A stretch of 64,000 bases of DNA from Chiloscyllium plagiosum. Taxonomy: Eukaryota. This document shows positions 10,140-62,945 of this stretch, one piece after another. Each line of letters starts with the position of its first letter. Position 1 is the stretch's first letter. The stretch spans positions 88,464,010 to 88,528,009 of the forward strand of contig NC_057718.1 of the NCBI RefSeq assembly GCF_004010195.1, written 5' to 3'. The position numbers were made by a program, and so were the translations under genes. The notes beneath the pieces were generated by a model. The model was not told the origin of the DNA. It did not search any database and was given only the letters and a program-made list of their open reading frames with translations.

Positions 10140-11737
10140 AATGCTGGATGACTAAAGAAATTGAGGGTTGGTTAAGGAAAAGAAGAAAGCATATGTCAGG
10201 TATATATAGACAGATAGATAGAGTGAATCCTTTGAGTGTAAAGGCAGTAGAAGTATATTTGAGAGAAATCATGAGGGCAAAAAGGGGACATGAGAGAGCT
10301 CTGACAAATAGAGTTAAGAAGAATCCAAAGGCTTTTTACAAATCCATTAAGGACAAAAGGGTGACTATGGAGAGAACAGGTCCCTTAAGGATCAGCAAGG
10401 CAGCCTGTGGAGCAGCAGGAGATGGGTGAGATACTAAACGAACATTTTGCATTGGTGTTTACTGTGGAAAAGGTCATGGAAGATATTGAATGTAGAGAAA
10501 TAGACGGTGACATCTTGAAAACTGTCCATATTACAGAGGAAGTAGTGCTGGATGTCTTGAAACGCATAAAAGTGGATACATCAGTGAGCCTGACTATGGT
10601 GGAAGGAATAATGAGGGACAGGATGTACATTTATTTGGAAAGGCAGAGACTGATTAGGGATAATCAACGTGGCTTTGCGTGGGGACATCATGTCTCATGA
10701 ACTTGAATTCTTTGAGGAAGTAACAGAGGATTGAGTGCAGAACGGTAGACATGAACCAAATGGACTTCAGTAAGACGTTTGAGAAGGTTCCCTGTGGGAG
10801 ACTGGTTAGCAAGATTAGATCTCATGGAATACAGAAAGAACTTGCTGTATTGGAAAAAGAACTGGCTCAAAGGTGGACGGGGGAGAGGGTGATGGTGGAG
10901 GGTTGTTTTTCAGACTGGAGGCATGTGACCAGTGGAGTGCCACAAGGATTGGAGCTGGATCCACCACTTTTCATCATTTATATAAATGATTAGGATGTGA
11001 GCATAAGAGGTATGGTTAGTAAGTTTGCAGATGACACCAAAATTGGAGGTGTAGTGGACAGCGAAGAAGGTTACCTTGGATTACAACAGGATCTTGATCA
11101 AGTGGGCCAGTGAGCTGAGAAGTGACAAATGGAGTTTAATTTAGATAAATGTGAGGTGCTCCATTTTGGAAAAGCAAATCTTAGCAGGACTTGTACGCTT
11201 AATGGTAAGGTCCTAGGGAGTGTTGTATCAGAAGGATATTGTGAAACTTGAAAGGGTTCAGAAAAGATTTACAAGGATGTTGCCAGGGTCGAGGATTTGA
11301 GCTATAGGGAGAGGTTGAATAGGCTGGGGCTGTTTTCCCTGGAGCGTCTGAGGCTGAGGAGTGACCTTGTAGAGTTTTATAAAATCATGAGGGGCATGGA
11401 ATAGGGTAAATAGACAAGGTTTTTACCCTGGGGTGGGGATTCCAGAACTAGAGGGCAAAGGTTTAGGGTGAGAAGGGAAATATATAAAAGGGACCTAAGG
11501 TGCAACATTTTCACGCAGGTGATATGTATATGGAATGAGCTGCCAGAGGACGTGGTGGAGGCTAGTACAATTGCAACGTTTAAAAGGCATCTGGGTGGGT
11601 ATATGATTATGAAAGATTTGGAGGGAAATGGGCCGGGTGCTGGTCGGTGGGACTGGATTGGGTTGGGATATCTGGTCAGCATCGACGAGTTGGACCGAAA
11701 AGGTCTGTTTCCGTGCTGTGCATCTCTATGACTCTGC
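10140..11737 (+). mobile_element. CR1/HER1-type LINE ORF2 fragment with internal deletions and 3' end
   Basis: NPKAFYK, MDFSKTFEKVP, VTSGVPQG, FADDTK, WNELPEDVVEA, and the 3' tail ctctatgactct. Confidence 0.9.
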
Positions 11738-13984
11738 GTGGTCAGGGAGTTGCCATGGGGATGCAGCATAGTTTGGTTATTTCTGACCCTTTTGGAACAA
11801 GATGCGATATGTACAAAAGTCTCTAGTTCTGATGACTGCAAGTTGAAAAATGTTGAGTTCTCGTCTCCTTTTCAGCAATGTTGGAGATTTGTAGCAGAGG
11901 ACAGGAGATGTCCCTTGGAATAGGGAGAATGTGGGATTGCTTCCAAGTTTTGAGCTTGTGGAAGATATTATAACATTCCAAGTTAGTGGTGGGTGGATAA
12001 AGGGATGTGGGAATTGGATATTTAATGTTTAAACTATTCTTCTGCATGAAGGGTAAGCCAACACTGATCAACTTGGAGGATTCTTGATTTGTGTAATGTA
12101 TTTGTGTTGGATTTTCTGCACGACTGTGTCCCTCTTCAGTAACCATATTGTCTGTGTGGCACTCCCAGGCTGCTATTTGCCCCCTATCAACCTCTGTGCT
12201 AGAGCTGCAAGTCTTTAGTTTTTCACCTCAGCCTGTGAATTGGGTTAAGTGGCCATTCTGATACTGAATTGGTCCCATTTACTATCAAATACCATTTGAG
12301 GTGTGCTTGTTGGTTAAACCTAGTTCCTTCACTGGGTGCCCTGAAGTGAAATGAAGCCGGTTCCTATGGATACATGTTAGTCCCCTGTGCAATATGGCTG
12401 ACGTTCTTGAATTGCAAGCGGCTTTAAGTGTTTGGCTTTAGAATGTGGGTACCCAGCCAATGGGTTATGGGGGACAAACGCATATTACAAATAAGAGGAA
12501 TGGGGTGTGAGTGTCTGAGCTTCCTAAATTAGCAACAGGATTTCATTGGCATATTATCATAACGTGTCTTAACTACAAATGCATAACATTAGATTGAGAT
12601 GAAGCTGGCAATGTAATGGAGATGGGAATAGTGTTTGTAGTGTTGTTAATGTGAGTTCTAAGCTTCATCTCTGGCAGTGTTGGTGTTTATCTTCACATCA
12701 CATGGTTGTCATGTAAAGGCATGGAGTTGGAGTTAATTTTGGTGTTCCCATCATTGAGTTGAAAATTTCAATTTTGGTTCACCCAGTAATGAATATCAGG
12801 AAAACGGTGACTTTTGTGGACACATTGTGACGGTAGTGGTGAGGGTTAGTGCAAATCACCAAACTCCCTCTCCATTTTGGATGTGAAATGAAAGACCAAG
12901 GATTAGTCCTGGGGGAGCTCAAGGTAAGTGGGTGGGAAGAGGAAGGTATTGTAGTATTGTAACCTGAAAGCCACTTGCAACTAGAGAAGTAAGAATGGAA
13001 CCAGAGTTCAGCAATCCCACCCACTGGAATGATGGTGAAACAGCAATGGAGGCTGCAGACAGGTCCATGAGGGTGAGATTGGTGTAGTCATGTGGGATGC
13101 CATTTGAGACTTTTGGCAGGGTTGGAAAGCTGTGTAGAAGCATTGAGGAAGCATGGATTTCTAGGAGAGATTGGCAGGAGTTTGAGTTACAGCATGTCCC
13201 ATGACTTTGGCCGAGAAGAACAGGTTGGAGTTGGGATGGTGTTTTCAAGGATAGAAGAGCCATGGGTGTCTGGAGTCGGCTGATGAATTATGATGTCAGG
13301 ACTTGAAGAGAGTGAACTGTCGCCACATCCATTTATGTGACGACCAGGGGAGGAAGATGGGAGGTCAATAGTCTTAATGACAATAGGATTTCAAACATCA
13401 GGAGCTGGGTCACTTGGGCTAGAGGAGATCAGAAAGAGAAACTGAAGAAGGATGTAAACTGTATGAGTCAGACAACCTTTTGAGGCAGTGTGGCCTGATG
13501 CATAAGGGTAAGAGAGAGAAGTAACAAGAGACAGGAGATCGGTTAGTCTAAATTTGTTGACACAGTCCGTGAGCTACTCAGGCTTGCTGCTTTAAATTTC
13601 CCTTTTAAGCCTTGCTGAGTGAAATCTGTGCTCTATGCATCCAATAGAGAGAATGACTATAACTTCCACTGGCAGTTCTTTTTTGTGTTGTGTGCTGCCT
13701 TTGTCAAGGGGCTCTGTGATGCTTTAATGCAAAACTTTCCTTAGTGTGTAGGGCCTTCTCAGATGGCAGCCTCCAGGTGTGGTCTGAGCCAACCATCTGC
13801 CCCCTCTTTTGAAGGGGCTTTAGTTAACTTAACCTTGAAGGGGCTGAGGGTGGGGGTGTTGTCACATGATGACTTTGTTTCTGAAGTGTTTTGTTTGAAT
13901 TTCTCTGCAGTTATGTAAATGAGCATGCGGAACATTTACACAGTCAGCATTGTCTGCTTTATTGTCCAGTTTAAATTCTTAGTA

Positions 13985-15135
13985 ATACTTAGTCATCCAG
14001 CAAGGAAACAGACCCTTCAACCCGACTAGTCCACACCGACCAGATATTCTAAATTTAATCTGGTCTGTTTTGCCAGCATTTCTCTCTAACCCTTGGAGAC
14101 AGTAAGGACTGTAGATGCTGGAAGCCAGAGTTAATAGATGTGACGCACAGCAGGGCGAGCAGGAAAGTCGATGTTTTGGGCTGAGACCCTTCGTCAGGAC
14201 TGGGGAGGGGGTGGGGAACCCAGAAATAAATGGGGAGGGAGAGGGCCTGCTGGGGAAGGGTTGGTGATTGGTGGATGCAGTTAGGGGGTTATTGTGATTG
14301 TTTGGTGGAAAGGGGTGGAGTGGATAAATGAGTAGGAAGATGGACAGATTAGGTCAGGTCAGAGAGGCGGGGAGGAGGACTGGACATGGGATAAGGCTCC
14401 AGATGCCTTTTTAAATGTTGTAACTGTACCAGTCTCCACTTCCTCTGGCAACTCATTCCATACACTCACCACCCTCCGCATGAAAATATTGTCCCACCGG
14501 TCCCTTTGGATTCTCTCCTCTCTCACCTTAAAGCTATGCCGACATGGTTTTGGACTCTCCTACCTTGGAGAAAAGACCTTGGCTATTTACCTCATCTACA
14601 TCCCTCATGATTTAATAAATATCTAGAAGATCATCACAAACCACTTACAGTCTAGGGGGGAAAAAAATTTCTAGCCTGTCCGATCTTTATCAACTCAAAT
14701 CCTCCAGTCTCTGTAACATGTAAGTCCTTTTTGCTCTGTTTCCAGTTTATAACATCCTTTCTATAGCAGGGTGACCAGAATGGTACATGGTACTCCAAAT
14801 ATGGCCGTACGAATGTCTTGCACAGCCATAATATGATGGCTCAATGTCTGTACTCCGTGCTCTAACCAGTGAAGGCAAGCGTGCCAAATGCCACCTTCAT
14901 TATCCTGTCTGTGTGAGACTGCTTTCAAGGAAGCATGTACCTGTGCACCTTGTTCTCGCTGATGGACATCACTCCATAGGGCCCTACCATTAACTGTAAT
15001 GCCTGTTCTGGTTTGTCGAACAAAAATGCTCCACCTCCCATTTATCTGAATTAAACTCTATTTGCCATTCCTCAGCCCAGTTGATCAAGATTCTGTCGTA
15101 CTGTGGGATATCTTTCTTCACTGTCCACCGTACCA
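13985..15135 (-). mobile_element. CR1-type LINE fragment interrupted by a PLE
   Basis: CR1 3' tail at ~13990-14090, resuming at ~14398; WAEEWQIEFNSDKWEV. Confidence 0.75.
14094..14397 (-). mobile_element. Penelope-like element 3' fragment
   Basis: gtaaggactgtagatgctgg... The minus strand reads GUC-CUGACGA-A-GGGUCUCAGCCC-AAAACAUC-GAC, a CpG-decayed hammerhead core. Confidence 0.7.
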
Positions 15136-16884: not shown

Positions 16885-17600
16885 TAAGTTAGAGCTGAAA
16901 CTGTGTTGCTGGAAAAGCGCAGCAGGTCAGGCAGCATCCAGGGAACAGGAGAATCAGGCAGCATCCAGGGAACAGGAGAATCGACGTTTCGGGCATAAGC
17001 CCTTTTCAGGAATGAGGAACGTTTGTCCAGCAGGCTAAGATAAAAGGTAGGGAGGAGGGACTCGGGGGAGGGGCGTCGGAAATGTGATAGGTGGAAAAAG
17101 GTCAAGGTGAGGGTGATAGGTCAGACTGGGGTGGGGGCGGAGAGGTTAGGAAGAAGATTGCAGGTTAGGAAGGCGATGCTGAATTCGATGGATTTGACTG
17201 AGACAAGGTGGGGGGAGGGGAAATGAGGAAACTGGTGAAATCCGAGTTCATCCCTTGTGGTTGGAGGGTTCCTAGGCGGAAGATGAGGCGCTCTTCCTCC
17301 AACCGTCGTGTTTTTGTGGTCTGGCAATGGAGGAGTCCAAAGACCTGCATATCCTTGGTGGAGTGGGAGGGGGAGTTGAAGTGTTGAGCCACAGGGTGGT
17401 TGAGTTGGTTGGTCCGGGTGTCCCAGAGGTGTTCTCTGAAACGCTCCGCAAGTAGGTGGCCTGTCTCCCCAATATAGAGGAGGCCACATCGGGTGCAGAG
17501 GATGCAATAGATGGTGTGTGGAGGTGCAGGTGAATCTGTGGCGGATATGGAAGTTTCCTTTGGGGCCTTGGAGGGAGGTGAGGGGGGAGGTGTGGGCTTA
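16885..17600 (-). mobile_element. Penelope-like element, 5'-truncated: GIY-YIG endonuclease C-terminus plus pLTR
   Basis: IYCILCTRCGLLYIGETGHLLAERFREH..PVAQHFNS..EERLIFRLGTLQPQGMN. The hammerhead core has lost G8 (CUGAAAAGGG). A 27-bp tandem duplication lies at ~16928-16981. Confidence 0.92.
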
Positions 17601-20060
17601 GTCTCTTCTGTGGGATTTGGATGGATTTTTCTTAGTATGTAGTTGTTTAAAGCTTCAGAACCCTTGACTGGATGGCCCCCAGTGCCAGACTGGAGGATAG
17701 TGTCTCTTGAATGAAAATTCCAAAAGACTTTTAAGAAATTGGATAAGGAAAATTTAAGTATTTTCAGAAGCCTTCCCTTCCAACTGAGCCTGACCACCTC
17801 CTTTAAAATAGTCCAAATTGATGAGGGTTAAGGTAAAGTTGTTTTAAGTTATTCCCTTCCCCCACCCAAAACAAAGGCCGTGTCAAAGCTCACCTTTTCA
17901 GAATATGAGCTTAGTTGTAAGTGAATCTCAAGGTCCATGCCTGGTCCTTTCTGTAACCTAACCCATGACCTTGATTGTGACGACATCAAAAGGATGGTTT
18001 CAGCACTGCTTAGTAGTCAGTGAAATGGGAAGGACTGCAATGCAGAGCCTGGGTACTGAACTGGGAGTGGAGACTGGTGCGCAGAGTTTAGTATGCCCCT
18101 GAAGAGCATCTTTTATGATGACTTGAACTGCTGCAGAATGTTGCTGTTTGTTGCGGTGCTTGTCAGATGAACTTGCAATCACAGTTGTGATGATTCCTGA
18201 AGGTGAGTAGGGTTTCAGCTGGAAGGGTACAGAGCCTGCTGCTATTGCTCAACCGGTACGGTTATTTTAAAATTTTAAATATAGTGTCTGTAGAGAGCTT
18301 TGCAGGATTTCAAAATTTGCATCTCCCAACTGGAAAGATGTAAAGAAACTGTGTGGTAGGTAGGAAAAAACAGGCTTGTCCTATTTCTGAAGTTGTTGGC
18401 TAATACAAGACAGTGACAGGTGACCTTTTTGTTTGTTTGGTATAAAAAGCATTTGTGCTCTTTGCAGAAGCTACAGTTGTGGAACTGCACAGTACAAGTG
18501 CTGACTGTGTACAGTATGGATTGTCTCAATTACAGTTGCCAGAGTGAGGGGGTGTAGCCTTCAAAAGGGTATCTCTGGCCTACACCTTTTAGATCTGTTA
18601 GGTAATTTGATTAAATTTAGAATGCCACCATCAATCATGTGCATCCATGCATATTGTGTATTCAAAGTTTCTTCTCTCCTGCTCTTTGACTCTGTTCTGG
18701 GGAAGTGTCCTGTGTGTTTATCTTCTACTGTTGTGTATTTTCATCTATTTTATTTCCTTTGGCTTTGCCAGTTGCCCCTCCATTTCTTCCCAAGACTGTT
18801 TGTTTGTTTTTTCTTTCTGTCTGTCTCTCTAACCTGTTTGGTTTCTTGGACACATGAGGGCTAAAACTTCCTCACCCCCAACTTCTAGCACCTGATAGAT
18901 TCCACTGCTTCCAGGTTGCAAGACCCTTTTTTAATATTATGGTTCCCTCCCGCTCCCCCTCTTTTCCTCATGTCTCTCCTCTCTCACTTCCTCTGTTTCC
19001 TGTTCTATGGTATAGCACTCTCTTCACCAAGATTAATGGACAGTAATTATAATCTGCTTTTTACCATGTTCTGGGACACTTTCTCATAAATGCTAATGAG
19101 AGAGTGGTCTTTGAGAGTAAAATTAAAGCATTACATTTGCAGTAATCCTTGCAATGTTCTTTATGACCACAGCAACAGGAGGCAGTGATTTAACCCACTC
19201 TGCCTGTTAACCATTTGGTGAGATCACAACTGATCTGCAACTTCATTTCATATACCTAAAGCAACTAAACCTTTTTGGTTAATGAAAAGGTATCAGTGTC
19301 TGATTTTAAAATTTCAGTCACCTAGCAGTAACTGTTGTTTTGGGAGGAGTTCCAAACTTCTTCTATCTTTTTTTTTGTCAAAATGGTTCCTAATTCTGTC
19401 CCTGGAAGATCAGGCCCCAGTTTATATCCTTTACCTTCTGTCCTTAAATAATAAAGTGAAATGTGCAGTTTCCAATCTAGAGGAATTATTCCCAAGTTGA
19501 GTTTGGGAAGATTAGCATTAGGGTGACTGCAATGCTCTCTACTTTTTAAACTTATCTGGTCCTTTGGATTGTCATTTCTATGCATTTTGTTTGGTGAGCT
19601 TCTGTCCCTGATTGTGTTAGTTTTCTTGGGGTGCCTGGTGTGCTGATGTTGCCCTGTGTTTTAAGTAATGATGCAGAGTAAATATTCAACATGTTCACCT
19701 CTTCCTCGCTCTCAATGACAATGCCACTCGATTTTGAAGGGCGCTGCATTGCTCCTGACCAGCCTTATTTGGCAAGGCAATGGTACATTCCTTTTATAGT
19801 TTTTGTTGTTCCTTAAATTACTCCTCCCTATTCTGTCTTTCTGGAGTGTTTTTTTTTGACGAGCAGGGCACCCTTGACCTTTAGTGTACACTGGTTCTCA
19901 TTTATTCACATTTTTTAAATGTTTCCCACTGACCTGTCATTTGGCCCATTTGATTTGCCCAATTTATTGTTGACACAAAATTCACTTTTTAAAGTGAGCA
20001 TCGGGCAATAGGAGACTTCCTCCATCCAGCCTGATCCCCTGATTGAAAATGGATTGACAA

Positions 20061-23969: not shown

Positions 23970-24755
23970 GCATCGTGGAGATGTACAGCATGGAAACAAC
24001 AGACCCTTTGGTCCACTTCGTCCATGCTGACCAGAGATCCCAACCCAATCTAGTCGGACCTGGCCCCATATCCCTTCCTATTCTTATACCCATCCAGATG
24101 CCTTTTAAATTGCCTGTAATTGTACCAGCCTCCACACTTCCTCTGGCAGCTCATTCTGTACACGTGCCACCCTCTGAGTGAAAAAGTTGCCCCTTAGGTC
24201 CCTTTTATATCTTTCCCGTCTCACCCTAAACCTATGCCCTCTAGTTCTGAATTTCCCCATGCCAGGGAAAAGACTTTGTCTATTTATCCATGCCCCTCGT
24301 AATTTTAAAAACCTCTATAAGGTCACCCTCAGCCTCCGACGTACCAGGGAAAACTGCCCCAGCCTGTTCAGCCTCTCCCTATAGCTCAAATCCTCCAACC
24401 CTGACAACATCCTTGTAAATCTTTTCTGAACCCTTTCACGTTTCATAACATATTTCTGATAGGAAGGAGACCAGAATTGCATGCAGTATTCCAACAGTGG
24501 CCTAACTAATGTCCTGTACAACATGACCTCCCAACTCCTACACTCAATACTCTGACCAATAAAAGAAAGCATATCAAATGCTGCCTTCACTATCCTAATC
24601 TCCTTGAAAATGGAGTCACAGGTAGCTATGAACCTGCACTCCAAAGTCTTTGTTCAGCAACCCTCCCTAGGATCTTACCATTAAGCATACAAGTCCTGCT
24701 AAGATTTGCTTTCCCAAAATGCAGCACCTCACATTTTATCCAAATTAAACTACTA
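23970..24755 (-). mobile_element. CR1/HER1-type LINE 3' fragment just upstream of the AKAP12 acceptor
   Basis: LYRTLVRPLLEYCMQFWSP..ERVQKRFTRML..RERLNRLG. Confidence 0.9.
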
Positions 24756-24821
24756 CTTTCTCTTGACACTGAATCAGATTCTATTTTGATACTTACCTTT
24801 TTGAATCTTTTCTATTTGCAG

Positions 24822-27800
24822 TTGAACCGCCTATCAAAACCCAAGAGGAGAAACTAATCGAAATGGACTTTGAGAAAAAGGAGACTCCCACTCAAACCAA
24901 AGATGAGGAGCCAAGAGATTCCCAGGAAGATGCAGATCCTCCTGTTGAAATTGGAGAGGAGGCGCAAGCTGGTGAGGTTGGCTTCAAGAAGGTCTTCAAA
25001 TTTGTGGGCTGCACGTTCACAGTGAAGAAAGAGAACCCTGACAAGCTGGAACCAGTGCAGTTGCTGACTGTGAAAAAGGATGAAGCAAGTGAGACAGATG
25101 GCGAATCTAAGCAAGAAATGGGAGGAATGACAAATGGTGATTTGAGTCTTGCTGCTCATGAGGCAGAGGAGAGTCCACCTGAGGTTCTCACCCCTAGAGA
25201 AATGGAAGAGTCCACCAGTCAGGCAGAACCAAAACCCACTGTTGCCGCGGAGCCAGTGGAGTCTGCCGTTAATCCGGTCGAGAACCCTGCTGTGGATTCC
25301 CCCTTGAAGAGATCTTTTTGGCAAGGCTTTTTCTCAGTGTTGCAAAGGAAGCCAAGCTTCAAGAAGGCTGAAGATGAACCCCTGGTCATTGGGGAGAAAC
25401 CTGAGGTAAATGGAGAGCAGAAGGAAAATGAGGAGCAAGTCGTTGCTGCTGGAGATGTTAATGGTGAGGAAGGTGACCATGGACCTTCGAAGGGGCCTTC
25501 CGCGTCACAAGATGATGCTGAAATCTTGGAGGTTGGCCCAGTGAAAGAAAAAGAGCGAGATGACGATTTTGAGGACCTCTCAGCGGAACTGGCCAAAGTC
25601 AGAGAGGCTGAAGAAGGATTGATTTTGGACTCTAGGGAGAAGATTGGGGAGGACAGCGTGTCCACAGAAGACGATGGGCAATGTGGCCCCAAAATAAAGA
25701 TGACCGTCCCAGCCTTGGAGATGGATCAGGCGACCCAGTTGGCTCAGAGTCAGGTGAAGCCAGAATCTGCTGCCATCGAAGCTTTGGCAGGGCTTCAAAC
25801 AGAACAGACCGATGTAGACATGGATCAAACACCAGGCAAGGTCCAGGAGCCTGTACTGGGAGAAGTGGAGCTCTTGTCATCCCAGGAAAAGGCCAAGTTG
25901 CAGGGCAGCCCTCTGAAGAAACTCTTCACCAGTAGTAGCACCAAAAAGCACTCTGGGAAGAAACGAAAACGTGGCAAAAGAAAGGCCAAACTGAGAAATG
26001 ACGACGAGACACGACTTCAGTCATCCACCGAATCGGAGGGCAGTCCAGATGGCCAGAAGATGGACATCCCTCCTTTAACATCCCCTGAGGAAGCGGGTGA
26101 GGCAGTCTCTGCAGAGATGCCAGATGCTTCCAATCCTGAGGTAGAGACAATAAACGAAGCCAGTGATGGCGAGAGGAAGAAAGAGAACATTACCGCATGG
26201 GCGTCATTTAAGAAGTTAGTGACATCAAAAAAGCGCCCCAAAGTACAATCTGAGAGTGACCGAGAAGATGAGCAGACTGATAAAGCGAAGGGAGCAGCTG
26301 TCTCCTCTAGTGAGAATGTGAGCGCTGCCCCGGCCGATAAGCCAGAAAAACCAAACACCGAGGACCTGAGTTTGGAGCGGAGTACTGAGGATCCCAAAAA
26401 GAAAGCGGATGCCCCTGTAACCTGGGAGGCGCTGATCTGCGTCGGGTCCTCCAAGAAGAGAACAAGAAAGTCCAACTCGAAAGCCCCGCAACCAGATGTG
26501 GAGGCACAAAGATCACCCGAGGGGGCCATCCAAGTGCCGGACAATGCTGAGGAACTGAAAGCTAGTGTTCCACAGGATACAGATCAGGAGCCAGGCACAG
26601 CATCTCCAGAAGGTACCGTCAGCAGTCCGGTGGAGGCGGATGTATCTGACGGCGCTGTCTCCGTGTGGGAATCCTTTAAGAGGTTGGTGACCTCAAGCCG
26701 CAAGTCCAAATTCAAGATTGAAGACCGTGCAGACGACTCTGTTGTTGCAGCAGAAGCTGCTGTTCCCGAGACCGAACAGGCCAAGGAGGAGTCCTGGATG
26801 TCTCTGAGAAAACTGATCCCAGGCCGAAGAAAGAAGAGGTCTGATACCAGAGATGACCAGTCTGTGGTGGAGGATGTTGGAAAAGAGACCACAGAGGCAG
26901 AGTTGGGAGTGAGCAAGGGTGAAGAGCCAGACACACCAGCAGTGGTTCCCCTTTCTGAATATGATGCTGTCGAAGAAGAGAGAGCGGCTAAGGAGCAGCA
27001 GGAAACACGCGGAACAAATGCTTTTCCTGAGGGGGAGGTTATAACCAAGTCGGGAGCACTAGCTGAAGGTGGGGAGCCAAGGGTCGAGCAAGCCATTACC
27101 GTGAACCAGGGAGCTGTAGAAACAATCAAAAGCAGCGTTGATGAGAGATCACCATCATGGATATCAACCGCAGTCCCGGACATCATTGAGAAGAGGGTTG
27201 AAGGTGAAGGAAAAGTAGTCGAAATTGTGACAGAGGGGGAGCAGTTGGAGCGTGGCGACGCAGCCTCGCCAGCAGAAGTAACCAAAACAATCTGTCACGA
27301 TGAGACTGCCAGCGAGGCAGAGGAGATTACCTGTGAGGTTGTCATGGCACCAGAGTACCTGGCTGAGAAGACAGCCGAGATGGTTTCAGCAGTCTTGCAG
27401 ACCTCTGAGATCCTAGTGACAACAGCGGAGTGCACTCTTATGCCAGAAGATGAGGTTCTGGTAACCAGACAAACCCATGAGTCGCTACAGGAGGCGGTTG
27501 TGGAAGTGACAGAGGCGGTCTGCGAAGAGACCCTGGTGGCCGCCCACCCTGTTGTGGATGACACAGTGGTGGCGGCCCATGAAGAGACTCTGGTGGTCAC
27601 CCACCCTGTTGTGGATGACACAGTGGTGGCCCATGAAGAGACCCTGGTGGCTGCCCACCCTGTTGTGGATGAGACAGTGGTGGCCCACGAAGAGACCCTA
27701 GTGGCCGCTCACCCTGTTGTGGATGAGACAGTGGTGGCCTGCGAAGAGACTCTGGTGGCTGCCCACTGTATTGTGGATGAGACTGAGGCGGCCCGTGAAG

Positions 27801-30796
27801 AGACCCTGGTGGCCGCCCATCCTGTTGTAGATGAGATTGAGGCGGCCCGCAAAGAGACCCTGGTGGCCGCCCACCCAGTTGTGGATGAGACAGTGGTCGC
27901 CTGTGAAGAGACTCTGGTGTCCGCTCACCCTGTTGTGGATGAGACAGTGGTGGCCTGCGAAGAGACCCTAGTGGCCGCCCACCCTGTTGTGGATGAGACT
28001 GAGGCGGCCCACGAAGAGACCCTGGTGGCTGACCACCCTGTTGTGGATGAGACTGAGGCGGCTCACGAAGAGACTCTGGTGGCTGACCACCCTGTTGTGG
28101 ATGAGACAGTGGTAGCCCGCGAAGAGACCCTAGTGGCCGCCCACCCTGTTGTGGATGAGACAGTGGTGGCCCATGAAGAGATTCTGGTGGCCGACCACCC
28201 TGTTGTGGATGAGACAGTGGTGGCCCATGAAGAGATTCTGGTGGCCGACCACCCAGATGTGGATGAGACTGAAGCGGCCCACGAAGAGACTCTGGTGGCC
28301 GCCCACTCTGTGGATGAGACTGAGGCGGCCCGCGAAGAGGCTCTGGTGGCTGCCCACCCTGTTGTGGATGAGACAGTGGTAGCCCACGAAGAGACTTTTG
28401 TGTCTGCCCACCCTGTTATGGATGAGACAGTGGTAGCCCGCGAAGAGACCCTAGTGGCCGCTCACCCTGTTGTGGATGAGACAGTGGTCGCCTGTGAAGA
28501 GACTCTGGTGGCTGCCCACTGTATTGTGGATGAGACTGAGGCGGCCTGTGAAGAGACCCTGGTGGCCGCCCATCCTGTTGTAGATGAGACAGTGGTCGCC
28601 TGTGAAGAGACTCTGGTGTCCACTCACCCTGTTGTGGATGAGTCGGTGGCGGTCCGCGAAGAGACTCTGGTGTCCGCCCACCCTGTTGTGGATGAGACAG
28701 TGGTGGCCTGTGAAGAGACCCTAGTGGCCGCCCACCCTGTTGTGGATGAGACAGTGGCGGCCCGCGAAGAGACTCTGGTGTCCACTCACCCTGTTGTGGA
28801 TGAGTCGGTGGCGGTCCGCGAAGAGACTCTGGTGTCCGCCCACCCTGTTGTGGATGAGACAGTGGCGGCCCGCGAAGAGACCCTGGTGGCCGCCCACCCT
28901 GTTGTGGATGAGGCAGTAGTGGCCCACGAAGAGGCAGTGGTGGCCCACGAAGAGGCTCTGGTGGCTGCCCACTCTGTTGTGGACGAGAAAGAGGCAGCCC
29001 GCGAAGAGACTCTGTTGGCTGCTTGCCTGGGTGTGGATGAGATGGAGATGGCCGCCCACTCTGTTGTGGACGAGACAGAGGTGGCCCATGGAGAGACTCT
29101 GGTGGCTGCCCACTCTGTTGTGGACGAGAAAGAGGCAGCCCGCGAAGAGACTCTGTTGGCTGCTTGCCTGGGTGTGGATGAGATGGAGATGGCCGCCCAC
29201 TCTGTTGTGGACGAGACAGAGGTGGCCCATGGAGAGACTCTGGTGGCCGCCCACTCTGTTGTGGACGAGACAGAGGCGGCCCATGAAGAGGCTCTGGTGG
29301 CCGCCTACCCGGATGTGGACGAGACAGAGGCGGTTCATGAGACTCTGGCTGCCCGCCCGGGTGTGGACGAGACAGAGGCGTCCTGCGAAGAGACTCTGGC
29401 CGCCCACTCGGTTGTAGATGAGATGGGGGCGGCCCGTGAAGAGACGGCCGCTTGCTCAGTTGTGGACGAGACTGTGGTGGCCGCCCGCCCGGTTGTGGAA
29501 GAGACTGGGGCGACCCACAAAGAGACGGCAGCTTACCTGGTTGTGGACGAGATGGGGGCGGCCCGTGAAGAGACGGCCACTCACCCGGTTGTGGACGATA
29601 CTAGGGCGGTCCGCGAAGTGACTCTGGTGGCCGCCTGCCCAGTTCTGGACGAGACAAGGGTGGCCCATGAAGAGACTGTGGTGGCTATCCGCCCAGTTGT
29701 GGACGAGATGGGGGCGGCATGTGAAGAGACTGTGGTGGTCGCCGGCCCGGGTGCAGAGGAGACGGAGGTGGCCCACGAAGAGACAGTGGTGGCCGCCCGC
29801 CCAGTGGATGAGACGGGGCTGGTACATGAAGATTCTGTGGTGGCCGCCTGTCCTGTTGTGGATGAGACGGAGGTGGCCCACAAAGAGACTGTGGTGGTTG
29901 CCCGCCCGGTTGTGGATGAGACGGGGGCAGTCTGTGAAGAGACTCTGGCTTCCCACCCGGTTGTGGAAGTGACGGCGGCCTGCGAAGAGACTCTGGCGGC
30001 CGCTCGCCCAGATATGGACGAGACGGGGGTGGTCTGCGAAGAGACGGCCGCCCACCCGGTTGTGCCTGAGATGGGGACAGCCCGCGAAGAGACTGTGGTG
30101 GCCGCCTACCCGGTTGTGGATGAGACGGGGGCGGCCCACGAAGAGACTGTGGTGGCCGCCTACCCGGTTGTGGATGAGACGGGGGCGGCCCACGAAGAGA
30201 CTGTGGTGGCTGCCCGCCTGGTTTTGGATGAGACCGGGGCGGTCTGCGAAGACACTGTGGTGGCCGCCTGTCCGGTTGTGGACGAGACTGGAGTGGCCCG
30301 CGAAGGGACAGTAGTGGACGCCTGCCCGGTTATGGACGAGACAGGGGTGGCCCGTGAAGGTTCTGTGATGGCCACATGCCCGGTTGTGGACGAGACCGGT
30401 GTGGCCCGCCTGGTTCTGGATGAGACCGGGGCAGCCCGCGAAGACATTGTGGTGACCGCCTGCTTGGCTGTGGACGAGACGGGGGCGGCCCGCGAAGTGA
30501 CTGTGGTGGCCGCCCGCCCGATTGTGAACGAGACGGTGGCGGCCTGCGAAGAGACTCTGGTGGCCACCTGCCCGGTTGTGGACGAGATGGGGGTGGCCAG
30601 CAAAGAGACTCTGGTGGCCACCTGCCTGGTTCCGCAGGATACAGATCAGGAGCAAGGCACAGCATCTCGGGAAGGTACCATCAGCAGTCCAGTGGAGAGG
30701 GATGTATCTGACAGCGCTGTCTCCGTGTGGGAATCATTTAAGAGGTTGGTGATCTCCTTTCTGCTGACCCTTGCAACTTTTCTGTTGGGCCACTGA
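24822..30796 (+). CDS. AKAP12: A-kinase anchor protein 12 (gravin/SSeCKS), main large coding exon
   Basis: Acceptor ttttctatttgcag|TT at 24821/24822 is in frame with the 1977-aa ORF. Gravin motifs are present: GFKKVFKFVG..VQLLTVKKDE, SSQEK..QGSPLKKLF, WASFKKLVT, WEALICVGSSKKR, WESFKRLVT, ESWMSLRKLIPGRRKKR, PAVVPLSEYDAVE and ERSPSWIS. The gene sits next to ZBTB2 as in mammals. Confidence 0.95.
27521..30628 (+). repeat. Coding minisatellite, ~54-bp/18-aa unit ([R/H/C]EET[L/V]VAA[H/R/C/Y]PVVDET[V/E/G][V/A]A), about 60 units
   Basis: Visible directly in DNA and translation, counted by eye. It includes a 141-bp higher-order duplication (for example 28981 vs 29122). Confidence 0.97.
30629..30756 (+). 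repeat. 128-bp direct duplication of 26567-26694 (WSK2-containing segment)
   Basis: Manual alignment shows about 11 mismatches in 128 bp and no indels. VPQDTDQE..VSVWESFKRLV is repeated. Confidence 0.95.
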
Positions 30797-32800
30797 AATC
30801 TTGATTACTGATAAATGCCAAAGATGTAGATCTTTTTGTAGCTGAGTTCAGAACCCAGTAGCAACCTTTGCTTTGACTGCAGTAGGTCACTGCAGTGACA
30901 GTGGGCTCAGTGATGACACAGCTTTCAGAGTTCCAATTCTTTGGCTTGCTCTCTTTAAAAGGTAATCTAGGTGCTTCCTTCACTGTTAGTCTCTTGTTGC
31001 TCTGTTTAATCAGTTGCTTAGGCACTCTGACCCTACTGCAGAGGTAACAACATGTCCAAAACTCATTGTCTTTTGATATTATTTTGGAGTTCTTTTTAGT
31101 CTCATTCAGTACTTTTCCATAAGGGTTGTGTTTTTCTTTTACCTTGAGCCTTTTCACCAACACTTTTTAAAGCTGTTGACGTTTTTCCTCTTTTCTCAAT
31201 GTTCTAAACTTTACATCAATAGTTCATTGTTAACGAAACACAACACTAGTACACAAATTCTTGTTTCAAGCTGGTTTCTTGAGCTTCCCTTTGGACAATA
31301 GGATGTTACTTCCATTTACTGTGTGCATTATGGAATGTCCTTGCTCTTTATCAAGACTTTTAAAAAAATTACATTTCATGTTCCTCTATCATCTTCAAAG
31401 CCAAGAAGGGTGCCTAAAACCTGATGTAATTTTTTCTCTAATTCTAGGCCTAAGGTTCTCTGCATGATCTTTTTTACTGCATAGCTCACTAAGTTGATTA
31501 TTCAATGCACCTTGCGTTCTATTGCACCAGTTTTGTTGGCAGAGTGACAAAAACACTTAGATCTTCAGAGATAAAGCCAGCATTATAGATCTTGCTTGAT
31601 AATGGTTCTTCAGCTTTTTCTGTTGCTTGTTTTCATCCAGTCCTAAAGCCTATCCCCCCAGCATCCCCTTTTCTCTGTTTCTGGCCTGTCTTTATTTTTA
31701 GTCAAGGTCCTCTAATATTTGATGTGTGAGTCTTCTTGTTGACTCGATCGTTCTTTCTCTGACTTTTAACCTTTTGCATGAGAATCAAGACAATCTTTTG
31801 TTCTCAAACATCCACTTGAGCTACAAATTGTTGCCTTTCCTAAAATCTCATTTAAGCTGGTGAGTTTCTTTAGGCTTCCAAGTTTTCCATTGTCTCAGCT
31901 GAAATGCATTTGTAATTCTGCCAGCTTCCATTCTGTGTACTTTTTCTTTGCTTTGTCTGTTGGATTCTGAGTTCTCTCTTCTTTCTGTGTTTGCTTGAAC
32001 ACTTCATTTTGTTTGAGGAGTGCTTAACTTAATTGTTTCCACTCCCAGCAGCATTGAAAAATGATCTCCCTCCACTCAGAATGCCCCTTTTAATAATGTC
32101 TTCTGGTCGTCCGAGTTCCAGTCTCATTGGCTTTCATTTTATTTTACTCTGGCGTAAATTGTGGTAACCACTGATACGTGAATGCTGTTACAGTCTACAT
32201 CTGTATTACTTTGGTCAGTGGAGTTTCTGTCTTTATTGTGATAGTTGATCTGATTTACTTGGCTGTCCAGATATTCCAGTAACTGGCTTTGCCAGGGTTG
32301 ATGTTTAAACTGTAGTTTTTGTCATAATTTCACTGCATTCAAACAGCACCAATCAACCCCGATGTGACCTCTTGCTTTTGGAGGTTTTGCACCTCATATG
32401 TGAGAACTTGTATATTATCTTTCACCAAGAAATCTCATGACCATACTGATCTCTGGAGAACTACTCTGTCTGGCTTGATCTTGTTCATGATGACTTCGGG
32501 ATCCTCAGCAGCTGCACTTTGAATTACTGAATTAAGTATATTATTTGTGTAATCCTCAAGTTGAAAGATGCAGCTGCTATTTTGACGAGGAGCCACTGTG
32601 ACTTTTTCATGTTTCTCTCCAAGTGAGTAGATAAGGACTTGTTTGTGCTAATCTTTCTCTCTTCCAGTCCATCTTCATAAATAAGAATATAGATTGATAA
32701 TCTGTACATTTCTTGAATGCTGTTTTGTACTCCTTGATATTCTAATGATCCAAGTAGCAGCCCCTTTGGGTGTTAGTGTTTTGTTTGTTTTTGATGCCTT
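30760..32800 (-). mobile_element. Decayed RTE-clade LINE (APE endonuclease and RT remnants)
   Basis: Minus-strand remnants occur in RTE order: ATWIIR, IQEMYRLSIYIL, IYSLGEKHEK (32632-32603), FNLRITQI, NQINY (~32255), DCNSIHVSVV (~32195), SKIYNAGFISEDLSVFVTLPTK (~31600-31530), GFEDDRGT and EEKRQQL. There are many frameshifts, and the 3' boundary below ~31070 is weaker. Confidence 0.8.
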
Positions 32801-33369
32801 TTAATAATCATTGCAAGGTAACAGACTTTGCAGTTCATGGTGGCCCCTTGAGTGGTGTCAACCTCATTCATGCTGATAATTGTTTATATTGACCATATTT
32901 GATGAAGGGAAAGAGGTTTAATGAGGTATTTTTGTTGTCATCCTTGCCTGTTTGAAGGGATCACTCTCTCTTCTCAGAGGATCCCTTGCCTGGCTCCAGC
33001 CAACTGTTGGTCTAGTAGTGCCATGGAGACTTCTGGCTCTGCCATTGGTCATGACCTCTAATAGTACTCAAGATCAGTATCAGCAGCATGTGGGACTGTC
33101 AGCTACATGCTGGGAGGTGGTGGAGGGGTCATTGAGCTATCCCTGCTAAATTGCCTCAGTAACCAAGAGATTTTCTCCTCTTGAACAATTCATGCTGATA
33201 CTATGGTGTCAACTTCTAATTTTGAAATCATTCTATTTCTAAATCTCAAGGTGCCTTTGTTCAGTTTTCTAAATTTATTTAGAAGCCTTTTCAGACATTT
33301 GTGACCCAGAATTTAACCTGTTAAAAGATGAGCAGCAACTATACTTGACTAATTAATTAGTCATTGTTC

Positions 33370-33560
33370 ACCGGCACAGGACCGTAGGTATCTCTCTTGA
33401 GAGGGACAATTGGCTTTGCAGTGTGAGCATCACTCCGTTAAATACGGCACAAGGTGAGGAACCAGGTTTTAATAAAGTACCACAGTGTGATTGAGATTTA
33501 ACCTACATTGTTGGTACAATTCTTGTAGTACACGCTAGCCATTGAGCTAACCAATGCCCC
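33370..33560 (-). mobile_element. tRNA-derived SINE fragment
   Basis: The minus strand begins ggggcattggttagctcaatgg with an A-box and a degenerate B-box. Confidence 0.45.
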
Positions 33561-33607
33561 CATTCATTGTAAAACATTGATAATTTTATTTTTGTGTGCA
33601 TTTGCAG

Positions 33608-35200
33608 AGCTCCAAACAGACACTCGTGAAATAGAATGTGAAGACGCAACGCTACTGTGACAAGACCAAGTACCACTGTTGATTGACAATCCCGAATCAA
33701 TTCGCGAGCTATATCTACATTGGCATTTAATAATTTCTTGCTTTTAGCCATGATAAACACAATGGTGTCTGAAAATTGAAGGGGTATTTGCTCAAAAATC
33801 TGGCGATGCATCTTTGTATCATCAGTTTGTTACATTTAGGATATTCTTAGAATTAAACTTGTTGATTAAAAAGCTGTGTCTTTTACATTTTAATTTGGAT
33901 TTTGATAACTGAGTTAACTTTGGTGTTCTTAATGTTTGATAAAGGACTACAGTGTTGACAGCTTAAACCTAGGACAACCTGAGAGTGAAACAGGTCCATA
34001 GAAATGGTAGGTACAGCAAGCTAAACTTAATGATATTTCATGATTTGATTTGCTTGAACAAAGCTCACCAAGATCATTTAGAATTTTGAAGCACACTCAA
34101 GGTTCTGGCAAAGCTGATCTCAATTCTAAGGAATAACTTCAGATTTGAAGTCCTCCTAATGGAGTATAAAGCTAACTTTTAGTGCATTGTGCAAAGTTGA
34201 ACCATGCAAAATTGGCCATGCTGACATCCTGGACTATTGCATATGTTCCAGAGGATGAAATGTGACCATCGTTCATAGAAAAGTACAGCAAAGAACAGGC
34301 CATTTGGCCTATGCTGTTGTGCTGAGATTCATTTAATTCCTTTAGACTGTTGGGTGACTGGATCCAGATTGCTAAAATTGAAGCCTTTAATGAAAGTGCA
34401 TTGTTGGGTTACTAGTTAAGGTTTGTTTGGACTTCCATAATGACCTCCAAGATGTGCCTTGCTATTGCATACAATTAATGCTCACGTGCCATTAATGTTC
34501 CTGTCTTAATGTTTTTTTGGCAAATTTGTGACTGATCTCATCATTCCATCCCAATATTTTTCTCACTAAACTCCAGCATTAAAACAATGTTTTAAACTGA
34601 TTATTCAGGTTACCCTGTTCAGTATATTTCCTCCCTTACTCAATTAATAAACCAACACCCTATCCTTGTAACACTCACTGTACAGTAAATGATCAGGTTA
34701 AAAATGGTAACTACTGTCTACTTGTGTACTGCATGAATTTAAGATTAGATTCCCTACAGTATGGAAACAGGCCCTTCAACCCAACAAGTCCACACCGACC
34801 CTCCGAAGAGCAACCCACCAAGACCCATTTTCCCTCCGACTGATGCACCTAAATTATGGGCAATTTAGCATAGCCAATTCACCAGACCAGCACAGCTTTG
34901 GACTGTGGAAGGAAACTATAGCACCTGGAGGAAATCCATGCAGACACTGGGATAATGTGCAAACTCCCATAGATAGTTGCCTGAGGGTGGAATTGAGCTC
35001 AGGTCCCTGGCACTGTGAGGCAACAGGGCTAACCACTGAGCTGCCTTGAGCAGAATCTATGACAGAGACTGATGCTGCTCTTATTAACGCTGCTGTGCTT
35101 TTATAACTGATGTGAAATTGACATTTGTATAAATTGTATTTGCTGTGTATCTAAGCCATATTGGAATAACTAAAACAATATGAATAAAGTAATATTAGCA
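33608..35200 (+). other. AKAP12: Candidate terminal exon/3'UTR of AKAP12
   Basis: Strong acceptor ttttatttttgtgtgcatttgcag|AG at 33607/33608, followed by mostly repeat-poor, AT-rich sequence. AATAAA occurs at 34646 and 35183. Confidence 0.4.
34742..35047 (-). mobile_element. HE1/V-SINE type SINE
   Basis: Reverse complement of gctcagtggttagc..tgcctcacagtgccagggacc..; tail agattagattccctacag. Confidence 0.8.
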
Positions 35201-36689
35201 TCCTTGTATGGAGATGCTCCTGTTCTGTGGCACTGACTGTTAATGAAGTTCATGAGGTAGAAATTTAGTCCATTCATTCCCCATAACTCTCCTTTTCCAA
35301 AGTTACTATTGCATCTGATTTCACCATAGTTTCAGATAAGCATTCTCTAGATCCTAGCTCATCAATGTAAGTGAGGAGTATTCCATCAAGCTCCAAAATT
35401 GTGCCTTTGTAGATAGTGGACAGGTTTCTAGGATTTAGGTTTTAGGATTGCTGACTTGACTGGCTTTTGTAACCACCGTATTTATATGGGCAGTTCAGTT
35501 TCTGGTCAATGGTGACCTAAGATTGCTGAATCCCTTATCAAATCAAGGCTACTGAATGCTAAACAGTGATGTTGGACTTCATTTTATTGGAGATGGTCAT
35601 TATTGGTGGTAATTTTAGTGTATTGTGCCTTTATATTTAACACAATCATTTTACTAAATGTAAATGTCCTCAATAACAAATAATAATAATGCATTAAATC
35701 TCTGAATGATAAAGGAACCCTTAAAATACACACGTGCCTGAAAATCAATAAGTAGCTGTTTGCCCCTATGTTTATCTTTTTATTTCCCTCCTAGTTCTCT
35801 ATTTATTGTGGAGCTTTGCTATTTGAATTGGCAACTAGATTTTGAAGGGGAATGTTGAAAAAGGAACAATAGGGCCTAGCTCTCAATGTTGAAAGAGAGC
35901 ATGGCTCTTGGCAACCCTTCCCCTACCACCACCTGATGCTATATTCAACTGTTTGAGGCTGCCCTCTGCTAAGGGGATAAACTTCAAACAGATATTGTTT
36001 AATTATCATCAATTGCAGGAAAGCTAAAGCACACGCTGCCCAGAGAGGGGAGGGTGTAATGTCCCTTCACTTGCTTGGCAGTAGTTAATCTCAAAATGAA
36101 TCATGGAGAGGGCACTTTGAACCTGGTATGATACCAAGGTCAAATGTGTTCTTTGCCCTGTAGTGAAATTCACCTGTGGAGGTATTTAACTAAATGGTCT
36201 AACAAGCCCATTTGCCATAGGTCTGCACATGGATTTACTTTCAAGATCACAAATTTTTTTGATCAGTGAAAATATCCCTCATGAGTGCCCATGGGCTCAG
36301 GTAGTTTGAACTTCAGACGATGGCTTAAAACATTAGCAGCATTAATAAGGCAATGAGTACAGAAACTGCCCATTCCACTCTTAGCAGTCCTTCTACTGAC
36401 ACGCATGGGTTCAAGACTGACTTGGTCCCTCAGCCCAAAGACATTGTTAGCTGGATAAATTTCACTTCTAACATTCTCCAGTTCTAAAGGAAACAGTTTT
36501 ATATCAAGTGTACAGCCAGCAAAGATCGAAAAATAGGTTTGGTGGGGGGGGCGGAGAAATGATTAAATAACAATAGGGATTGTATTGTGAATATTATAAG
36601 TATACAAATACCATATTCTCTCAGCTGATGAATCAGTACTTCTCTATGTTGAGCAATGCTAGGAGGAAGCACTGAGGGTTGCAAGGATG

Positions 36690-42131: not shown

Positions 42132-43530
42132 TCATTCCACTAAAACGGCTTGACCATCTTCCACGTTATGCACGGTTTCTGACAATGACTGGCTCACTTC
42201 TGTCACTTCGCAAGCTTCTGAAGAGCCTTCCCCTTGAATTGTTGGTTGGCCTTCCATCAAAACAAAGGTATCAGAGTTCTGGTTTTGACATGAATGCCGA
42301 ACAGCTTCACTAGCAGTTGAGAAGCTTTTATCACACAGATTGCACTTGTACGACTGGTTTGATTGGTTTGTTGCTAGGTACACTGGATCCATTAGTGACT
42401 GGCTCGTTTCTTCAGAAGAACCTTCAGTAAGCATTGCTTGCTTATTATCCACCATCATATAGGTATCAGAATTCTGGTTAAGGCACACATGCCTGGCAGC
42501 CTGGTTGGCTCTACAGAATGTTTTATCACAGGTACTACACTTGTATGGCTTGCCAGTGTGAATATACATATGCTCTCGCCAGTGACTTTTCTGGATGAAT
42601 TTACGTCCACAGATGGAGCATTCATATTTTCGCCTTTTCACTTCCCTATCTTGATCCCCTAGCTCTATGTTGTCAATGTCTGCAATGTCTGATGGGGGTG
42701 GTGTTTCGGCTTGTAGTTGGCCATCTGCCATTGGTGAATCATTTTTCTGCTGTAGTTCGCCATCACTAATTACTTCTGCTTCAGGTATTTCCTCAGGATC
42801 TTTTGTAGGTTTCCCAGGCTCTACCAATTGGCCTAGCATATTCATTCCTGCTGGGTTGGTAACTGGAAGTGACATTCCTGTATGGAGCTGCAGGTGCTCA
42901 CGTAGGCTGCTTCGTAGAGTGAACCTTCTGCCACAAAGATGACAGACATAAAACTTGGGAAAACCACTGTTCCTTTTCATAATACTGGGTTTAACATGAG
43001 CTATTGCATGTATACCAGGCTGCCCATCTAATAGAGGGATATTTTCACATCGTTCTTCAGCCGTTGGAGGACCAGCTGCAGAAATCAAGCCTTGTTGTGT
43101 GCCTAAAGTCGTTGCAGATGACTGCCCAATCTGTTGAGACGGCTGAAGCATCTGTGCACCCTGGGGATGCTGCTGGTTAGCTTCTGCACCTCGTTCTTGC
43201 TCCATCCGAGAAGGATGAGCATGTGACCTGGGCTCTCGACAAGACTTTTCTGCTGCTGATAACCTACTCTGAGGTGTGGTTTGATTATCTGCAATCTGGA
43301 TGCCATATAATGATGATGTCCAAGCAAAAACCTGATCAGGACGAGGAACCGCTCCGTGGCTGGCTAAGCTGGCTTCCTGTACCAGTGGGTATGCATGCAG
43401 GAACTTAATTCCCTGCTCGAGACGGACAGGATCAATAATCTGGGGAGCCATTTTCCCGGTGTACATTAAATGCAGGAGGTAGCTAAAGATATCTGGCTGA
43501 ATATCAGTTGGTTTCAGTCGGACACAGTCA
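42132..43530 (-). CDS. ZBTB2: ZBTB2 last coding exon (BTB C-terminal part plus four zinc fingers)
   Basis: Acceptor ttttcacag|T gives a phase-2 join to SDCVRLKPTDIQPDIFSYLLHLMYTGK. It has C2H2 fingers CHLCGRRFTLRSSLREHLQLH and CSICGRKFIQKSHWREHMYIH, plus two atypical C2HC fingers. Total CDS is 1572 nt (523 aa). Confidence 0.97.
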
Positions 43531-43888
43531 CTGTGAAAATATATTTTAAAATACTTACAGGCTAGCAGAGGCATAAAACAAACAGAATCAAATGAACAAA
43601 ATTTACAAGTTTCAGAAAAGCACAGTTGAACAGGAACAGTTCAGCTACTTGGGAAAAGTGGTCTGTGGGCACAAATTAGCTTTCATGCTGTAGATGAGGG
43701 GCTAGCAGTCACATGGCTGATAAGTGCAATCAACATCAAAATGGATCTATAGCTTTTCACATTTTAAAACATTTTCATTTTGGGACCATCTATGGGATAA
43801 GATCATTTTAAAAAAGGGAAAAATAAAATTGCGCTAATCAGAAAAGGCACAATATACTTTTAAATTTTACATCAGAGTCAAGCATTAC

Positions 43889-62310: not shown

Positions 62311-62945
62311 ACCATTTAGAATCAGAGGCGTACAGCACAGAAACAGACCCATCAGTCCAACTCATCCATGCCGACCAGATATCCTAACCTAATCTAGTCC
62401 CATTTGCCAACACTTGGCCCATATCCCTCACAACCCTTCTTAAATCATGTACCCATCCAGATGCCTTTTAAATACTGCAATTGTACCAGCCTCCACCATT
62501 TCCTTTGGCAGCTCATTCCATACACAGACCACTCTCTGCATTAAAAAGTTGCCCCTTAAGTTGCCTCTTAAATTTTCCCCATGTGCCCTCTAGTTATGGA
62601 CTCCCCCAACCCTGGGAGACGACCTTGTCTATTTACCCTAGGGCCCTCATGATTTTATAAACCTCTAAGGTCACCCCTCAGCCTCCGATGCTCCAAGGAA
62701 AACAACTCGAGCATATTCAGCCTCTCCCTGTAGTACAAATTCTCCAAGCCTGGCAACATCCTTGTAAATTTTTTCTGAACACTTTCAAGTTTTACAACAT
62801 CCTTCCGAAAGGAAGGAAACCAGAATAGGGAAAAGCAACCCTCTACCATCACCGTCTTCTACCTTCAAGCCTATTCTGTATCTAAATGGCTAGTTCTCCC
62901 TGAATTCCATGAGATCTAACCTTGCTATGTAGTCTACCATGAGGA

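Follow-up and report, generated by a model that had tools for sequence, protein, structure and literature searches.

AKAP12 of bamboo sharks: a probable rebuild in which a coding repeat array takes the place of the C-terminal half

AKAP12 is named for its anchoring of PKA, and the gene described here raises the question of what kind of protein remains when the reading frame of an AKAP12 runs into a long tandem repeat. The gene lies in a 64,000-nucleotide stretch of the genome of the bamboo shark Chiloscyllium plagiosum (contig NC_057718.1), hereafter the window, where an open reading frame of 2,007 codons (24773-30796; + strand, as are all features below unless stated otherwise) contains three WSK motifs. 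A protein search with residues 360-916 returned 837 homologues, and the nearest AKAP12 proteins among them over these residues are those of Chiloscyllium punctatum (94%), whale shark (72%) and zebra shark (70%). Pfam PF03832 (WSK) matches three stretches, with 51.4 bits against a cut-off of 25. A tree of 12 elasmobranch AKAP12 proteins, without AKAP5, places the protein with that of C. punctatum and next with those of whale and zebra shark (support 100/100). By homology, then, the gene is AKAP12 (gravin). On our own profiles, the first WSK motif (26189-26257, 36.0 bits) scores like that of other sharks, while the second (26657-26722) and third (26783-26845) are weakened, at 21.9 bits against 35.5-38.8 and 27.9 bits against 36.0-40.3 in four other sharks.

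Gene structure and the repeat array

The short AKAP12 isoform is predicted to start with a small coding exon at 2595-2619 (ATG, eight codons and one base, GT donor at 2620), whose eight residues are identical to the whale shark N-terminus and whose phase fits an acceptor at 24822; no upstream exons of the long isoform were found within the window. There follows a giant coding exon of 5,923 bp (24822-30744), which holds the kept N-terminal half, the array and a duplicated segment. Its acceptor is placed from the sequence and the homologue alignment, and its donor from a spliced joint in two of four sequencing runs. A giant coding exon followed by a last exon is also described for mouse AKAP12, in which exon 3 encodes about 95% of the gene (PMC3776749). 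The modelled short isoform of the bamboo shark has 1,989 residues. Tail to tail with AKAP12, on the - strand at 42132-43640, lies a BTB/C2H2 zinc-finger gene (Pfam BTB, below its cut-off, and zf-C2H2; a search of PDB sequences returned generic zinc fingers only), which we take to be ZBTB2. In human, AKAP12 adjoins ZBTB2.

The array occupies 27497-30631 and comprises 1,045 codons, or about 58 units of 54 bp (18 aa). TRF reports period 54 at 27497-28945 (26.8 copies, 84% matches) and at 29468-30409 (17.9 copies, 74% matches). An initial annotation, made from the sequence alone, had recognised the array and placed it at 27521-30628 with about 60 units; the array stands, with slightly wider limits and slightly fewer units. 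Its 5' part (27497-28903) is made of homogeneous 54-bp units that appear to have turned over recently, and its 3' part (28904-30631) of older units that have diverged and carry indels of 3-6 bp or of a half-unit. At the nucleotide level, 23 full-length 5' units share 0.85 identity on average, and 17 3' units share 0.77. The spacings of EET-type anchors reveal half-units of 21 and 33 bp. All 56 VDE-type and all 96 EET-type anchors fall in a single frame, and all 55 VDE spacings are multiples of 3, with 15 of them unequal to 54. Composition is acidic and rich in Val, Ala, His and Cys (Val+Ala+Thr 49%), with a charge of -0.20 per residue over 1,045 aa. The polarity of the array, the two related half-units per unit, the indels in multiples of 3 and the composition had all been noted before, and these descriptions agree with ours.

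The initial annotation also took the lack of stops as a sign of selection for translation. The coding frame indeed contains no stop, against 5-66 in the other five frames, but this is weak evidence alone: only 3 of the 162 possible single changes to the consensus unit give a stop, and the probability of seeing none is about 0.2. Similarly, gain or loss of a whole half-unit preserves the frame automatically, and only the small 3-6 bp changes are informative. Stronger evidence comes from comparing the units with each other. For 38 distinct full units, the coding frame gives a pN/pS of 0.55, while the other forward frames give 0.99 and 0.98 and the three reverse frames 1.04, 0.69 and 0.92; no formal P value is attached, because unit pairs are not independent. 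Separately, pN/pS is 0.40 for 5' units and 0.73 for 3' units. These ratios support an array that is coding and under purifying selection.

Immediately after the array, a 128-bp segment (30629-30756) duplicates the lead-in and core of WSK2 (source 26567-26694; self-BLAST 91.4% over 128 bp, E 9e-46). The two copies differ by five amino acids and three silent codons of 37. The duplicate supplies the donor after 30744, in a context identical to that of a donor-like sequence after 26682 in the source. From there a GT..AG intron of 2,863 bp (30745-33607) leads to the terminal exon (33608-35202), which finishes the last codon and adds six residues, a TGA at 33627-33629 and a 3' UTR with AATAAA at 35183; its 3' end is placed from the end of a contig and a drop in depth, both in run X1. 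The in-frame stop of the genomic reading frame (30794-30796) is thus intronic and is bypassed in spliced RNA. The array had been described as lying inside AKAP12, which is misleading, since only 44 residues come after it. We considered the duplicate as a working fourth WSK motif and rejected it (4.0 bits in the spliced product), and likewise rejected the hydrophobic tail of the reading frame (30745-30796) as a membrane anchor, as it is intronic in the spliced contigs.

Four runs were compared with 30470-36500. Contigs of X1 and X2, which come from different studies with different organism labels, run from the array end through the duplicate to a joint at 30744|33608 (GT..AG), skipping the intron. 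The RNA nature of these two runs is judged from the splice and the empty intron, not from the run record; intron cover is nil except for one 151-nt contig of depth 2 in X2. In the DNA-like run X12, which may be the window's own source, 30470-34766 is unbroken and without the joint, and one 4,585-nt contig crosses the intron. The raw single-cell RNA run X21 has 56 reads in the compared region, none of them at the array end or the joint. The spliced X1 contig includes 451 bp of array (30181-30631) that match the window, and three runs agree with the window over the array's 3' end. A joint that seemed to go back 162 was considered as an allele and set aside, as it corresponds to the window's own 30181-30331 (27 differences, with 17/17 listed letters matching). 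Between 63 and 84% of sampled array words occur in 17 of 24 listed runs, from six studies. RNA cover of the array, which the initial annotation proposed to check, is therefore partial: the spliced contigs hold its 3' end, RNA continuity runs from 30181 onwards, and no contig or read covers the whole. As far as these runs go, compared from 30470 on, they give no sign of splicing out of the exon before 27521 or of an array-less transcript, and sampled array words are present in most of the listed runs, in line with that annotation. The C. punctatum gene model (P0002) has the same array, the same duplicate and the same last exon, with the duplicate at its C-terminus read in another frame (22/24 identical), and this shared order is therefore not an artefact of one assembly.

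The missing C-terminal half and the source of the repeats

The N-terminal approximately 900 aa are kept, colinear with other AKAP12 proteins and at 74% to whale shark. Homology with other sharks then stops at a QT.E.LQEA anchor, exactly where the array begins. Beyond this anchor, the seven sharks examined run on for 1,186-1,508 aa, with a charge of -0.13 to -0.17 per residue. We built profiles of three shark C-terminal blocks from 11 chondrichthyans (33-120 bits in the six training orthologues printed), and all three score below 0 bits in the window's protein, in C. punctatum P0002 and in all six frames of the window. These profiles show that the C-terminal half of about 1,200 aa found in other sharks is absent here. 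A possible decayed relic of the lost coding region lies at 30886-30936, where 10 of 17 codons equal whale shark residues 1775-1791. Its score of 48 is reached by none of 60 shuffles and none of 28 natural segments of the window, and reverse-complement controls score 43-55, near or above it; the match is suggestive only.

The PKA domain of human AKAP12 is C-terminal (PMC11979000), and the criterion for an AKAP is an amphipathic helix of 14-18 residues that binds PKA-R (PMC12083921). One of the C-terminal blocks holds an amphipathic helix that 11 of 13 other chondrichthyans have, as do 15 of 106 bony vertebrates, and that is absent here; it fits the AKAP helix pattern of PMC12083921, as a pattern match only. 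Another block, which aligns to the mammalian PKA-RII helix, is also missing here. A bony-vertebrate profile of the RII helix (at 15 bits) matches 98 of 106 non-chondrichthyans, none of 13 elasmobranchs including C. punctatum, and not the chimaera. The canonical RII site thus seems degenerate in sharks generally, and since the profile misses all chondrichthyans, PKA binding by any shark AKAP12 is a candidate function only. In white and basking sharks, none of the 11 isoforms examined has either helix, yet the tail is kept. A generic AKAP consensus pattern has two matches in the genomic reading frame, one in the intronic tail and one in a proline-flanked array unit. Pfam RII_binding_1 was discarded as a test, having matched just 1 of 20 orthologues. 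With neither the bony RII profile nor the shark helix matching, the bamboo-shark protein, an AKAP12 by descent, fails the test of the defining amphipathic helix for A-kinase anchors.

To ask where the 18-aa unit came from, we looked for periodicity in other AKAP12 proteins. All 12 other elasmobranchs have their strongest period at 18, 34, 35 or 36 aa, weakly so in two or three, and share the EET and PVV motifs with the array; in the chimaera the period is 24, and nothing similar occurs in six bony vertebrates. The repeats are strongly expanded in zebra, white and basking sharks and in sawshark. In the other elasmobranchs they start 340-430 aa past the anchor and are followed by 430-1,060 aa, whereas here they start at the anchor and are followed by 44 aa. 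A profile of the unit scores above all 60 local shuffles in 4 of the 12 elasmobranchs, but a Plasmodium protein and a bird orthologue pass that bar too; the case for homology of the unit is therefore built on where it lies, on its period and on the EET and PVV motifs, not on score. On this distribution, an 18-aa period is ancestral in elasmobranch AKAP12, and the earlier description of the array as a lineage-specific insert was inexact, given a 17-18-aa period in 12 of 12 other elasmobranchs. The array looks like an expansion of the ancestral repeat between two losses. Searches with the array itself gave 1 match in one case and 60 in another, of which only the C. punctatum protein is convincing. 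A Plasmodium TRAP-like protein, second among the 60 (31%), was taken as compositional and not as a homologue.

We also asked how old the units are by comparing the two bamboo sharks. From 28955 on, 9 of 10 three-unit segments are nearer to C. punctatum than to the rest of their own array, and the tenth ties. In the 5' part, segments match their own array and that of C. punctatum to about the same degree, and the variable residue of the 5' units is H, C or R here and mostly Q in C. punctatum. From this pattern and the diagnostic residue, we infer that the 3' end of the array is older than the species split and that the 5' end has turned over since. Unit number also differs, with about 58 in the window and about 38 in the C. 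punctatum gene model, which may be collapsed; variation between individuals, raised in the initial annotation, is a candidate feature.

A probable rebuild and its alternatives

We think it probable that bamboo-shark AKAP12 has undergone a lineage-specific rebuild. With similar confidence we would describe the product as a membrane-targeting WSK scaffold without a PKA anchor, in which the lost acidic half has been replaced by an acidic tail of similar length. In such a history, a deletion would have removed about 340 aa that separated the anchor from the ancestral 18-aa repeats, and the repeats would have expanded by unequal exchange, becoming fixed in the 3' part and still turning over in the 5' part. 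The region past the repeats would have been lost along with the old exon end, and the copied WSK2 segment would have provided the new donor. As the stop falls in the last exon, nonsense-mediated decay should spare the message.

Motifs in the N-terminal half of AKAP12 target membranes (PMC7670535), and the WSK/polybasic half of the bamboo-shark protein may still do so and bind calmodulin and PKC, with PKA no longer anchored. With nothing beyond it, the array cannot space two binding sites, and it would work by bulk rather than as a link between them. It may be a terminal polyanion in place of the acidic half that it replaced; a steric or electrostatic brush of this kind would preserve the size and solubility of the protein and keep its charge in balance with the basic membrane motifs. 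Compared with AKAP12 (gravin, SSeCKS) of other vertebrates, the three WSK motifs and the colinear N-terminal approximately 900 aa are alike. The differences are that the C-terminal approximately 1,200 aa are gone, with a 1,045-aa array and a partial fourth WSK copy instead, and that the exon has a new end made from duplicated coding DNA and no candidate PKA helix.

The closest parallels to this loss are mammalian PKA-domain deletions and gene-trap truncations of AKAP12, which also lack the C-terminal PKA-binding domain and have measurable effects in cells and mice (PMC11979000, PMC3776749). Such alleles were made in the laboratory and show lipid or cardiac phenotypes, while the bamboo-shark form is natural and occurs in at least two species. 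Among the papers listed in literature searches, none gives an account of shark AKAP12 structure or of such a rearrangement. The words AKAP12, gravin and shark are absent from the main text of PMC12083921, whose supplements may list AKAP12 helices. If the rebuild is real, a lineage with an expressed and selected AKAP12 that lacks its C-terminal half would separate the PKA-dependent from the PKA-independent roles of gravin. It would also let one trace how a new protein end arose, out of an old repeat that expanded and a copied piece of exon that brought a splice donor. The gene also offers a way to test whether any helix, and which one, anchors PKA in shark AKAP12, and whether length and charge alone account for the keeping of a long acidic tail.

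A bolder version of events is possible, and we put it forward only tentatively. Here, the only AKAP12 of bamboo sharks would have lost a functional PKA-anchoring helix, a second one that serves elasmobranchs instead of the mammalian helix, and would have gained a selected repeat tail of about 1,000 aa with a physical role of its own, for example as a brush or rod switched by cations or pH. White and basking sharks would have shed these helices in separate events. Sharks could then repeatedly do without PKA anchoring by gravin, with its membrane, calmodulin and PKC functions kept.

Perhaps the gene is instead relaxed or decaying, with only its N-terminal half, or little of it at all, important after the truncation, and the array a passenger that stays in frame merely to reach the stop in the last exon. 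We consider this unlikely, if less so than the readings that follow. Relative to whale and zebra sharks, the kept half evolves faster by a factor of approximately 1.5-1.9 (Tajima p 2e-4 to 1.2e-2), and it retains 88% of otherwise invariant columns, compared with 94-99% in nine other sharks and 85% in skate. Such acceleration also fits decay or a duplicate, and decay would be consistent with the weakened WSK2 and WSK3, the higher pN/pS of the 3' units and the amino-acid and silent differences between the WSK2 copies. However, pN/pS is low in the 5' units and across the array as a whole, when the other forward frames give about 1. The kept halves of the two bamboo sharks are 94% identical, and their terminal branches (0.036 and 0.028) resemble those of whale and zebra shark (0.023 and 0.052). 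The length and charge of the array also resemble those of the lost part.

Slightly less credible is a folded array, a β-solenoid or β-rich rod in which each unit forms a rung, perhaps with Ca2+, Zn2+ or low pH stabilising it via Glu/Asp, His and Cys. An AlphaFold2 model of eight units has strands of approximately 15 residues with short turns, at an 18-residue period, in its C-terminal half. The 49% of Val, Ala and Thr would suit this fold, as would a charge-hydropathy value on the ordered side (0.522 against a boundary of 0.485), and the repeats of AKAP150 are predicted solenoids (PMC12083921). Against this, mean pLDDT is only 57.7 (32-58 across five models), and a fold search with the model against the PDB gave no match at E<=0.001; in an atlas search the best value was 0.89, with none reaching 0.9. 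Where the acidic residues of a repeat stack, AlphaFold2 is also known to build unrealistic solenoids (PMC11795689), and a regular fold sits badly with the frequent 3-6 bp and half-unit indels and with a proline in most units. Disorder, as proposed in the initial annotation, is likewise a candidate state at most.

The window gene might also be a truncated duplicate, with an intact AKAP12 elsewhere, for example upstream of the window, which strikes us as slightly less plausible again. The bamboo-shark stem branch is long (0.22 vs 0.097), and our protein searches score just approximately 8,000 candidates, with no other hemiscylliid annotation among them. Nevertheless, the truncated form is the sole bamboo-shark match among the best 120 of the 837 homologues, with no second AKAP12 there, and the whale-shark C-terminus found no C-terminal fragment among the shorter proteins scored (30-1,176 aa). 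The gene also has its own first exon in the window, and its zinc-finger neighbour is as expected for AKAP12, by the adjacency in human.

A disordered spacer within an otherwise intact AKAP12, as the initial annotation proposed, is now very improbable. It drew on the acidic, low-complexity composition and on AKAP150, and its statement on the latter was correct: AKAP150 (AKAP5 of rodents and passerine birds) is also a WSK-type AKAP with a lineage-expanded acidic peptide repeat, variable in copy number (PMC12083921). There, however, units of 8 or 6 aa make up a median total of 256-342 aa upstream of an invariant PKA helix (PMC12083921), while the bamboo-shark units are 18 aa long, total 1,045 aa and stand at the end, with the helix gone. 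An AKAP150-type linker places its repeat between a targeting region and a kept PKA helix, and here the array is followed by the short remainder of the spliced product and by no C-terminal block in any of the six frames. Equally improbable is a mis-join at the repeat that created both the duplicate and the loss: repeat arrays do break assemblies, and two chimaera annotations (P0196 and P0197) lack C-terminal blocks that three others have, but contigs from three runs cross the junction here, two of them spliced, and the gene model of the second species has the same order.

The rebuilt gene may have a further product. Since the source copy of the duplicated segment carries an identical donor after 26682, splicing from there could give an isoform that lacks the array.

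Candidate PKA helix in chondrichthyan AKAP12

The mammalian PKA-RII helix had no recognisable profile match in the C-terminal region of chondrichthyan AKAP12 (protein annotations P0003-P0015). Approximately 70 aa upstream of the RII-helix position, a second amphipathic helix is conserved in 11 of 13 chondrichthyans (P0003-P0015), and is also present in sturgeons. Judged from the protein sequences, this helix is a candidate PKA site in sharks.

C-terminal blocks in other lineages

Profiles of the two C-terminal helix blocks (the RII-aligned and the shark amphipathic helix) showed both to be missing from all annotated isoforms of white and basking sharks (11/11; P0005, P0007 and P0187-P0195). 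All 11 annotated proteins nevertheless retain the extreme tail, and this combination suggests a separate internal AKAP12 deletion in lamniform sharks, as read from annotated isoforms. In the chimaera, the C-terminal blocks are missing in two annotations (P0196 and P0197) and present in three (P0015, P0198 and P0199). The chimaera repeat period is 12/24 aa, unlike that of elasmobranchs.

Splicing-related sequences and a putative relic

A donor-like sequence at 26682-26690, at WSK2, is identical to the donor used at 30744; its use could produce a short isoform without WSK3 and the array. Inside the new intron, 17 codons at 30886-30936 are a putative relic, possibly left over from the lost C-terminal coding sequence.

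Repeats and other elements in the window

RNA contigs break within the AKAP12 3' UTR exon because of a high-copy short interspersed repeat at 34742-35041. Self-comparison of the window revealed two long inverted repeats, one of ~510 bp (7793-8303; self-complementary at 86%) and one of 182 bp (62981-63162; 98%). A 220-codon frame on the minus strand (17165-17827) presumably resembles the end of a Penelope-like element that encodes its GIY-YIG endonuclease. One interspersed repeat family has at least six copies (9137-9858, 11226-11744, 14398-15079, 23978-24749, 45130-45964 and 62316-62826), which are 67-81% alike in the self-comparison; one copy stops ~70 bp upstream of the giant AKAP12 exon's acceptor.
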